Shown here: positions 14,911 to 16,071 of the stretch, piece after piece | Layout: the number at the start of each line of letters is the position of its first letter | How positions within the stretch are numbered: the stretch's first letter is position 1 | Sequence record: PV340570.1 | From: Escherichia phage PhiR49_2 | DNA length: 40,988 nucleotides | Direction: 5' to 3' (one strand) | Program-made: the position numbers and the translations under genes | Notes under the pieces: generated by a model | What the model saw: only the letters and a program-made list of their open reading frames with translations | The model's database searches: none | What the model was told of the DNA's origin: nothing

Positions 14911-14981
14911 AAAATGATTAGTGCGGTCCGCAAAAAGTATGTCAGTATGTTAAGAGTGGTTACTTCGCCACACAGCTTAAA

Positions 14982-15003
14982 CCCGCCGCGAGCGGGTTTT
15001 TTT
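14982..15003 (+). terminator. Rho-independent terminator downstream of Q (tR'-like)
   Basis: Stem CCCGC/GCGGG with a 5-nt loop followed by a T7 run, about 70 nt after the Q stop. Confidence 0.6.
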
Positions 15004-15061
15004 ATGGCTGAACGTTAAATGCGCTGGTGGTTGTGAATGCCGACTGCGGCGGTATTTTGGC

Positions 15062-15340
15062 GTGACGGCGCAGGTGCCGTATACCGATGTCTGGACGCAT
15101 AAACTGGTGCAGTTCTATCCCGGGAAACATCCGTGCGAAAAACCGGCAGAAATGCTGCAGCAGATAATCAGCGCTAGCAGTCGTCCGGGTGACCTGATTG
15201 CAGATTTTTTCATGGGGTCGGGTTCGACAGTGAAAGCGGCACTGGCGCTCGGGCGTCGTGCAATTGGCGTTGAGCTGGAGACTGAACGTTTTGAGCAGAC
15301 GGTTCGGGAAGTACAGGATTTAGTCAGCCAGAACGGATGA
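15062..15340 (+). pseudogene. 3' remnant of a DNA N6-adenine/N4-cytosine methyltransferase gene
   Basis: 92-aa ORF starting at GTG; contains the SAM-binding motif …DFFMGSGSTVKAA… normally at the C-terminal end of a ~250-300-aa enzyme; the frame upstream is closed by a stop at 14978-14980 and holds no DPPY-type catalytic motif. Confidence 0.5.
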
Positions 15341-15380
15341 TATTGAAGAATTAATTACGCGTCGTTATTATGCGGCTCCC

Positions 15381-15456
15381 GGCCCTTTAGCTCAGTGGTG
15401 AGAGCGAGCGACTCATAATCGCCAGGTCGCTGGTTCAAATCCAGCAAGGGCCACCA
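15381..15456 (+). tRNA. tRNA with CAT anticodon (Ile2-type or Met)
   Basis: 76 nt; hand-folded cloverleaf: acceptor GGCCCTT/AAGGGCC, D-stem GCTC/GAGC, anticodon loop CTCATAA, T-stem GCTGG/CCAGC, 3' CCA. Confidence 0.85.
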
Positions 15457-15463
15457 TCACATA

Positions 15464-15540
15464 CCGCCATTAGCTCATCAGGATAGAGCACCAGCCTTCG
15501 AAGCTGGTTGCGCGGGGTTCGAGTCCTCGATGGCGGTCCA
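15464..15540 (+). tRNA. tRNA-Arg (anticodon TCG)
   Basis: 77 nt; acceptor CCGCCAT/ATGGCGG, D-stem GCTC/GAGC, anticodon stem CCAGC/GCTGG with loop CTTCGAA, T-loop TTCGAGT, 3' CCA. Confidence 0.8.
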
Positions 15541-15553
15541 TTATCTGTACCCT

Positions 15554-15630
15554 GCGTTGTTAGCTCAACCGGACAGAGCAATTGCCTTCTAAGCAATCGG
15601 TCACTGGTTCGAATCCAGTACAACGCGCCA
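15554..15630 (+). tRNA. tRNA-Arg (anticodon TCT)
   Basis: 77 nt; acceptor GCGTTGT/ACAACGC, anticodon stem ATTGC/GCAAT with loop CTTCTAA, T-stem ACTGG/CCAGT, 3' CCA. Confidence 0.85.
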
Positions 15631-15644
15631 GACTTATTTTTCCC

Positions 15645-15670
15645 GGCTCGCTTTTGCGGGCCTTTTTTTT
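15645..15670 (+). terminator. Rho-independent terminator after the tRNA cluster
   Basis: Stem GGCTCGC/GCGGGCC (one G-U pair) with a TTTT loop, followed by a T8 run. Confidence 0.55.
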
Positions 15671-15870
15671 AAATGTCTCACAATTCAGACGGTTGACAGT
15701 TGTCTGTTTTGCGGGGAGTTTGTTAAAAGAAACTGGCATGGTGAATCCCCCTGTGCGGAGGGGCAATCAGCGAGTAGGTATATGGGATAATCGCGGATTC
15801 AGGTGCTGGTACTGAATTCACCGGGAGGCACCCGGCACCATGCAGTTGACTGAAACCATGTATACTCTCA

Positions 15871-15900
15871 GGCCCCACGCACATGTGTTGGGGCCTTTTT
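15871..15900 (+). terminator. Second hairpin terminator in the Q-to-lysis intergenic region
   Basis: Stem GGCCCCA/TGGGGCC with an 11-nt loop followed by a T5 run. Confidence 0.5.
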
Positions 15901-16071
15901 ACATGCAAAAAAAAGCCCGCATATGGATACGGGCGGCAAGGAACAAAAAACGTGAAGTGATCTATTCAGCCAGTGGATAATACCCTGACGTTACCATATT
16001 GCGCAATCGCGCATTCTTTCTTTTTCGCTCCCCTTATAACTACGCCATCCGTTCGCTGCGGAGGTGAGGCT

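Follow-up and report, generated by a model that had tools for sequence, protein, structure and literature searches.

Results

Organization of the region between Q and the lysis genes

The present study describes the interval between the antiterminator gene Q and the holin gene (positions 14911-16071) of Escherichia phage PhiR49_2 (PV340570.1), and the term window is used below for the whole stretch of 40,988 nucleotides (nt) that was analysed. A first-pass annotation had reported the order Q, terminator, three tRNAs and holin, the setting in which Shiga toxin (Stx) phages carry their toxin genes, and had regarded the slot at 15631-16071 as holding only hairpins and terminators. The order is as claimed: ARAGORN, Rfam and the Pfam matches of Q (PF06530) and holin (PF04971) give Q, a hairpin with a U-run, tRNA(CAT), tRNA-Arg(TCG), tRNA-Arg(TCT) and holin, and except for two blocks the locus is colinear with the Stx2a phage Stx2_14040 (L001 in our comparison set), which has the flanking architecture of Stx phages (Q, ileZ-argN-argO tRNAs, lysis genes). 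The description of the slot does not hold, as it contains an STnc100 gene and a convergent small RNA (sRNA) gene on the minus strand. Our data indicate that the interval is very probably a toxin-free moron region organized as a chain of small, separately terminated units, which would include the tRNA cluster and the two convergent sRNA genes, and that it carries a methyltransferase pseudogene. Gene identities and homologies in the following list were observed directly, and the promoter positions are predictions.

14530-14910, + strand: antiterminator Q gene, 126 amino acids (aa); PF06530 Phage_antitermQ, E 1.4e-52; named 'antiterminator Q family protein' by RefSeq in a genome of 99.8 % identity
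14955-15005 (stem 14979-14999), + strand: predicted start of the late (PR') transcript and conserved leader hairpin with U-run; terminator-like site, placed by homology
15043: deletion junction; 1,181 bp missing relative to Stx2_14040 (L001 3657-4837)
15044-15340, + strand: what is left of a DNA methyltransferase gene at its 3' end, 98 codons (pseudogene); of the 221 positions of the PF01555 profile, only 135-220 are matched
15343-15371, + strand: promoter-like site of the tRNA cluster (TTGAAG, 17 nt, TATTAT); consensus scan
15381-15456, + strand: tRNA with anticodon CAT, ileZ type (tRNA-Ile2); ARAGORN; Rfam 72.5 bits; RefSeq tRNA-Ile in the 99.8 % identical genome
15464-15540, + strand: tRNA-Arg (TCG), argN type; ARAGORN; Rfam 56.2 bits
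15554-15630, + strand: tRNA-Arg (TCT), argO type; ARAGORN; Rfam 70.1 bits
15645-15670 (hairpin 15645-15662), + strand: intrinsic terminator of the tRNA cluster; 7-bp stem with 6 GC pairs, then T8; -14 kcal/mol, z -3.2
15672-15673: unoccupied insertion point of stx2AB of Stx2a phages; window 15671 = L001 5466, 15674 = L001 6799
15707-15906, + strand: STnc100-family sRNA gene (RF02076); Rfam 140.2 bits (gathering score 47), with all model positions 1-206 matched; terminator stem ~15870-15895, then a U-run
15970-15907, minus strand: EcOnc08/21/42-type sRNA gene, assigned by homology, for which a start at 15970 would give ~64 nt; terminator stem 15934 to 15915, U8 15914 to 15907
16006-15977, minus strand: putative promoter-like element of the minus-strand sRNA; -35 TTGCGC 16006 to 16001, 18 nt, -10 TATTAT 15982 to 15977
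16072-16287, + strand: class II holin gene, the first of the lysis genes; PF04971, E 8.6e-36; RefSeq annotation

A consensus scan of positions 14400-16400 found 6 terminator-like sites as compared to 2.0 +/- 1.4 in shuffled sequences.

A convergent pair of small RNA genes

The plus-strand member of the pair is preceded by a TTGACA element at 15693-15698, which lies 5' of the STnc100 match. We know of no established function for STnc100. The gene occupies the same position in Stx2_14040, where it begins 75 nt after stx2B, and it stands just after stx1B in prophage Sp15 of E. coli Sakai; its location downstream of stx agrees with a published report (PMC12370729). In E. coli EDL933 there are 11 transcribed STnc100 copies, one of which has been confirmed by Northern blot (PMC5331693). 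A preprint of 2026 links STnc100 to the sRNAs PasD1 and PasD2 of enteropathogenic E. coli (EPEC), with which it shares the late-region prophage context near Q and holin. The PasD seed UGUGAG is, however, absent from the STnc100 copy of the window, and because of this the copy should be taken as STnc100 type and not as PasD type. PasD1 likewise gave no blastn match in the window, and a PasD identity for the plus-strand sRNA was rejected.

It was also observed that many related prophages (L035, positions 2686-3304, and 15 similar loci) carry STnc100 twice in tandem, at a distance of ~480 bp. Over its first 137 nt the window gene is 100 % identical to the first copy of L035, and its 3' end is different, a pattern that suggests recombination inside the conserved core of the gene.

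The minus-strand member was found at the terminator-like hairpin which the first-pass annotation had placed at 15905-15935, with no obvious gene to serve. The hairpin is real: the scan reports a site at 15934 to 15915 on the minus strand, and an 8-bp GC-rich stem followed by U8 (15934 to 15907) lies just past the STnc100 terminator, with a fold energy of -18.5 kcal/mol and a z of -4.3. The absence of a gene is the part of that claim which has to be given up. The minus-strand sequence preceding the hairpin, CACGUUUUUUGUUCCUUGCC, matches the EPEC candidate E2348C_1409.E2348C_1408.IGR. This candidate was detected as an sRNA by Hfq RIL-seq (RNA interaction by ligation and sequencing), is encoded on the minus strand adjoining STnc100 in prophage PP6 (Pearl Mizrahi et al. 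2021; PMC8550237), formed 767 chimeras with the 5' untranslated region (UTR) of cfa, has the target motif GGCAAGG/GGCAGGG and was noted to be homologous to EcOnc08/21/42 of enterohaemorrhagic E. coli (EHEC) (PMC8550237). The seed CCUUGCCG stands at 15941 to 15934 on the minus strand of the window; its CCUUGCC (15941 to 15935) is complementary to the RIL-seq target motif GGCAAGG, and the RIL-seq cfa fragment contains CGGCAAGG, giving an 8-nt seed match. In addition, the 73-nt Hfq peak EcOnc08 of Sakai prophage Sp4 (1179938-1180010, minus strand) maps exactly onto the sRNA segment of the window.

Alignments of the window with PP6 of E2348/69, Sakai Sp4, Sakai Sp15 and the Stx2a phage showed that the hairpin position, the seed and the element TTGCGC-18 nt-TATTAT are invariant. 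Among the related loci three sequence types can be distinguished, which have the promoter-like element and the 3' part in common, while each has its own 5' part, stem-loop and upstream flank; in one of the three the -35 element reads TTGCAA. Changes in the hairpin between types preserve the pairing (G-C to A-U, C-G to U-G). The window copy is of type B, with a different 5' part and hairpin loop. Since homologues, alignments and a convergent pair described in EHEC all match, the 'orphan' terminator would serve a described kind of sRNA gene, and as judged by homology the hairpin at 15915-15934 is the terminator of an EcOnc08/21/42-type sRNA gene.

Two other prophage sRNA identities were considered for the minus strand and ruled out. 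The AgvB and AsxR models (RF02702/RF02703) gave no Rfam match in the window at E up to 5, nor did they match in the Stx2a comparison phage, and the 3' sequence differs from published AsxR and EcOnc03. HnrS (EcOnc10-12) lies between the lysis and terminase genes in Sakai Sp12 and has no match in the window.

Public annotations over the two sRNA genes consist of calls at 15725-15883 (minus) and 15840-15980 (plus), given as a 'hypothetical protein' pseudogene in RefSeq and as a 38-aa hypothetical protein in phage vB_EcoS-611R1. These hypothetical-protein coding sequence calls are probably spurious.

The tRNA cluster

The tRNA scan confirmed that the window has exactly three tRNA genes. They follow Q, and their anticodons are in turn CAT, TCG and TCT, as in an ileZ-argN-argO cluster. 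The CAT tRNA has 0 mismatches to ileZ2 of Sakai prophage Sp5, and tRNA-Arg(TCT) has 1-2 mismatches to the reference copies. It was noticed that tRNA-Arg(TCG) is the most divergent of the three, with 3-7 mismatches to the Sakai and Stx2a copies and an Rfam score of 56 as compared to 70-72 bits. The set decodes the rare codons AUA, AGA/AGG and CGA/CGG. The open reading frames (ORFs) of the prophage use AGA, AGG and CGG at 5.5, 3.6 and 11.4 per 1000 codons, and by the E. coli K-12 codon tables the use of AGA/AGG/CGG is about twice the host average. The promoter-like site in front of the cluster has its counterpart in position and -10 element in Sp5, in which a transcription start driving the tRNAs has been mapped between tR' and stx2AB (PMC7547250). 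The terminator that closes the cluster is conserved in Sp4, Sp5 and the Stx2a phage.

The unoccupied toxin insertion point

Alignment with the Stx2a phage Stx2_14040 located the slot of stx2AB exactly. Positions 15044-15671 of the window correspond to L001 4838-5466 at 93 % identity and positions 15674-15985 to L001 6799-7129 at 69 % identity. The 1,332 bp between the two L001 segments are stx2A and stx2B and nothing else, and this block is the sole difference between the tRNA terminator and the downstream sRNA. In the window a stx2AB cassette would therefore sit between 15671 and 15674, immediately past the tRNA terminator. As the first-pass annotation had stated, no toxin gene is present: blastn and tblastn found no DNA- or protein-level similarity to stx1A/B, stx2A/B or nanS-p anywhere in the window. 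The toxin-free junction showed no scar in the form of a repeat, promoter fragment or coding remnant, and a search for direct repeats or recombination signatures flanking the stx2AB block or the upstream deletion gave no more than microhomology of 0-2 bp.

A 121-bp probe that spans the toxin-free junction matches without a break in 1,015 of 5,426 complete E. coli genomes, and the junction is nearly identical to that of Sakai prophage Sp4. A locus survey was made on 120 IMG/VR contigs which have the downstream sRNA core in common, and the tRNA landmark is present as well in 88 of them. The interval between tRNA terminator and STnc100 in these 88 loci was distributed as follows, the counts being indicative only because the loci were selected by a pattern and are not independent.

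~33 bp: 57/88 loci; unoccupied, the state of the window
~500 bp: 16/88 loci; a second, tandem STnc100 copy
650-790 bp: 8/88 loci
~1.36-1.38 kb: 4/88 loci; stx2AB in the 3 resolved (L013, L018, L028)

Between the sRNA pair and holin there is a further interval of variable length, which measures ~50 bp in 6 loci, as in the window, and 2.1-2.8 kb in most others, where it holds a nanS-p-like gene. As these loci read, the site is a true polymorphic cargo position, and the toxin-free state appears as its usual, majority state. The notion of a cargo hotspot is thus upheld by the polymorphic interval, while that of a lost payload is not, as there is no scar and the junction is the majority toxin-free one; nothing suggests payload loss here. 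In part, the region also answers to a case that the first-pass annotation had named as refuting its reading: from the tRNAs to the lysis genes it can be aligned over the whole length, at 98 %, with vB_EcoS-611R1, a phage without toxin genes.

The methyltransferase remnant

The second block that separates the window from Stx2_14040 is a deletion. Pairwise blastn places the break points between window 15042 (L001 3656) and window 15044 (L001 4838), and the junction sequences, read directly, show microhomology of 0-2 bp. A 120-bp probe across the junction was contiguous in 83/5,426 complete E. coli genomes. Both these break points and the population frequencies are direct observations. The deletion runs into a DNA methyltransferase gene, of which residues 255-352 of the 352-aa methylase of Stx2_14040 are left. 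The first-pass annotation had correctly described it as truncated to the C-terminal S-adenosylmethionine (SAM)-binding part, and had placed its start at 15062; this GTG is not the beginning of the remnant, which is 15044. The SAM-binding FFMGSGST is retained and the catalytic DPPY, which stands at residues 34-37 of the full-length homologue, is absent from the remnant. A complete N6/N4 DNA methyltransferase domain with both DPPY and FxGxG (PF01555) is not found in it, and the RefSeq label of the gene is 'incomplete; missing N-terminus' (pseudogene).

A translated search (tblastn) with the full-length protein found residues 255-352 only and no N-terminal piece in any frame anywhere in the window. 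Since the N-terminal fragment is found in no frame, correction of a frameshift cannot restore the methyltransferase; a single-frameshift rescue is ruled out by this search and by the clean 1,181-bp junction. By comparison with the Stx2a phage, the first 254 codons were lost by deletion and not by frameshift. Sakai Sp5, a classical Stx2a prophage, carries a still shorter 3' remnant of approximately the last 35 codons (L129 ~1626-1726) directly between tR' and the tRNA promoter. As Sp5 also has a remnant, decay of the methyltransferase is common in this group, and its 3' end seems to persist together with the tRNA promoter.

The predicted late promoter and its leader

Q with its downstream region is 95.9 % identical to the counterpart in Stx2_14040. 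The leader hairpin 3' of Q has a fold energy of -18 kcal/mol and a z of -3.1. To compare it with a mapped leader, the published landmarks of the StxS transcript, namely the 3' end at tR', the 258-nt length and the RNase E cleavage between GU and AUU at +173, were placed on the Sp5 sequence. The PR' start of Sp5 falls on L129 1346, with the promoter TTTACG, 16 nt, TATCAT, which the scan detects; the conserved hairpin is +25 to +49 (L129 1346-1394 region), and the mapped tR' is a second terminator at +258. Window positions 14947-15003 are 83-84 % identical to the segment of Sakai Sp5/Sp15 that spans the mapped PR' start and +25 to +49 of StxS. The late transcript of the window should begin near 14955-14958, a position that was taken from the Sp5 homology because the promoter scan passed no site.

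The hairpin just after Q, with its run of U7, resembles a textbook terminator, yet it is not the mapped tR', and in Sp5 the polymerase evidently passes it. Read-through of this first hairpin by RNA polymerase in Sp5 follows from the 258-nt StxS transcript, which includes it. StxS is the PR' leader that ends at tR' and has a 74-nt 3' part, StxS(S); the window is homologous to it only across approximately -8 to +49, and Stx2_14040 itself has only a 58-nt block in common with StxS. In Stx2_14040, which has the same Q type, a second terminator was found at L001 3912-3929, within the stretch that is deleted from the window. Since this stretch falls inside the deletion, the window keeps Q, a likely PR' and the first hairpin and is without a second leader terminator or a StxS(S)-like part.

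It is possible, but we think unlikely, that by removing the second leader terminator the 1,181-bp deletion lets a late promoter that is active at all times run into the tRNA cluster in lysogens. In such a case the supply of rare-codon tRNAs would rise without induction, provided that the polymerase passes the first hairpin as it does in Sp5. A second possibility, likewise unlikely, is that the type-B sRNA of the minus strand, which has a 5' part of its own, regulates a different set of host targets.

Prophage setting and neighbouring genes

The stretch is an intact-looking lambdoid prophage of E. coli with its moron region, from Q to the lysis genes, in one of several common toxin-free configurations. 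The 41-kb window has the gene content of a prophage, i.e. an integrase on the minus strand (32-1345), a repressor resembling CI, replication genes, Q and lysis genes, followed by a tail fibre. A 2-kb stretch around the locus matches the chromosome of E. coli JNEC-KY173 at 99.8 % identity and is covered to >=80 % in 55/5,426 complete E. coli genomes.

Several observations were made outside the Q-to-holin interval. In the early region Rfam finds isrK (8916-8992, 61 bits) adjoining a C4 antisense RNA (9014-9101, 75 bits), on the plus strand, both within the 5' part of an ORF (8859-9707) with Ash and Rha (antirepressor-like) domains; the pair looks like an RNA-controlled antirepressor module of the P1/Gifsy type. 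After the lysis genes there is an HNH endonuclease gene (17743-18093, plus strand), and adjoining it a 171-aa ORF with no Pfam match (18229-18744, minus strand), whose site between the lysis and terminase genes could be a further cargo position. A 203-aa ORF, also with no Pfam match, lies 3' of the tail-fibre gene (39772-40383, minus strand).

Discussion

The present study proposes that the Q-to-holin region works as a series of independent units. The late promoter region and the leader hairpin would stand just 3' of Q. In the lysogen, the tRNA cluster would be transcribed from its own promoter and end at its own terminator, and STnc100 and the minus-strand sRNA are predicted to be made as separate Hfq-associated RNAs from promoters of their own. 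With its CCUUGCCG the minus-strand sRNA could then bind to targets, for example to the CGGCAAGG of the cfa leader. On induction, Q-modified RNA polymerase starting at PR' would ignore the plus-strand terminators and reach holin and the other late genes, a step for which we rely on what is established for the Q proteins of lambdoid phages. We thus infer that both sRNAs are expressed in this strain, that Q brings about read-through and that the seed pairs with the cfa 5' UTR and similar targets.

A number of points weigh against this proposal. The promoter-like element of the minus-strand sRNA is below the threshold of the consensus scan, and its -35 element has only 3/6 matches. Downstream of Q the scan gave no PR' site above threshold in the window or in Stx2_14040. 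When the energy of a duplex between the sRNA body and the cfa 5' UTR was tested, the result was unconvincing, as shuffled sequences did equally well in 3 % of cases with the window copy and in 43 % with the EPEC copy. Relatives of the two sRNAs have Northern sizes that are longer than the proposed units (~235/247 nt for EcOnc27 and ~271 nt for EcOnc08/21), and the window is without the sequence from which a long minus-strand form would start. It should be noted also that the pattern by which the 120 surveyed loci were selected contains the sRNA seed, so that the survey is uninformative on seed conservation.

Three other explanations of the slot have to be weighed against a toxin-free moron region with an sRNA pair. 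The slot could once have held stxAB or another payload that was lost by deletion, leaving only hairpins behind; stx2AB does sit exactly at 15672/15673 in related phages and the neighbouring methyltransferase shows that deletions happen in the region. We find this quite improbable, as the junction has no stx remnant, promoter fragment or repeat, the same junction, near-identical in Sakai Sp4, is the majority state (57/88 loci; 1,015 genomes), and the slot holds two sRNA genes and not merely hairpins. The right flank, moreover, is only 69 % identical to that of the Stx2a phage, because of which the window is not a recent deletion derivative of Stx2_14040. That the minus-strand hairpin is an insulator only, i.e. 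one half of a two-way terminator that blocks antisense transcription from the lysis side and has no dedicated gene, would fit its back-to-back arrangement with the STnc100 terminator as well as the lack, in the window, of the upstream region from which the ~271-nt EHEC form would start. A simple insulator does not account for the conservation, across divergent phages, of the 60 nt that precede the hairpin on its own strand and include the seed and the -10 TATTAT, nor for homologues that bind Hfq and form chimeras with mRNAs, and we consider it very improbable.

Lastly, the conserved sequence could encode small proteins, since a 46-aa ORF (15840-15980, plus strand) and a 61-aa ORF (15908-15723, minus strand) both exist, similar ORFs are annotated as hypothetical (in the phage record, and in RefSeq as a pseudogene) and some EDL933 copies of STnc100 have ribosome footprints, with a ribosome coverage value of up to 3.2. 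Coverage is low for most of the EDL933 copies, however, and the plus-strand ORF crosses two terminator hairpins, the homologues are separated by non-triplet indels and the sequence matches a structured RNA model over its full length with 140 bits; coding is thus extremely improbable. We retain the reading of the slot as a toxin-free cargo site occupied by two convergent sRNA genes.

The toxin-free form of the Stx insertion point is the usual one in E. coli prophages, which is relevant whenever a prophage is to be judged a 'former' Stx phage. In current genome annotation nothing is marked here, or else there are questionable pseudogenes of the 'hypothetical protein' kind, when the stretch holds two sRNA genes. 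In EHEC and EPEC their families bind Hfq and make contact with mRNAs of the host and of virulence genes. The main use of the present analysis is in correcting the annotation, and it adds little as a discovery.

Comparison with known systems

The closest overall counterpart is the stx2 locus of Stx2a-converting phages such as 933W/Sp5 and Stx2_14040. The order of Q, PR' leader hairpin, methyltransferase or its remnant, ileZ-argN-argO, terminator, STnc100 and minus-strand sRNA is shared; the window differs in being without stx2AB, nanS-p, a second leader terminator equivalent to tR' and a StxS-type 3' part. With the EPEC candidate E2348C_1409.E2348C_1408.IGR the minus-strand sRNA shares the strand relation, the position by STnc100 and the seed CCUUGCC, after which come a GC-rich terminator and a U-run, whereas the EPEC transcript is estimated at 182 nt, the window sequence diverges beyond ~120 nt and the sequence of the stem-loop differs. 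The anti-sRNAs AgvB and AsxR occupy the same niche on the 3' side of the moron and likewise run antisense to the late transcript, with a variable 5' part and a conserved 3' part; they would resemble the minus-strand sRNA in size only if its short form is real.

The best match to the pair as a whole is the convergent sRNA pair that was described at the moron site downstream of PR' in lambdoid prophages of EHEC (Tree et al. 2014, Mol Cell; PMC4104026). Both pairs lie downstream of Q/PR' and any moron genes and upstream of the lysis-side genes, their terminators stand back to back, the plus-strand partner belongs to the STnc100/EcOnc27 type, and for the one on the minus strand the alignment is with EcOnc08 of Sp4. 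In the window, the minus-strand partner is a sequence variant (type B), and the nanS-p-like ORF that usually follows is absent, because of which the pair directly adjoins holin. Every element of the region belongs to a kind that is already known, i.e. the PR' moron site, the ileZ-argN-argO cluster, STnc100, the EcOnc08/21/42-type sRNA and the pseudogene flagged by RefSeq.

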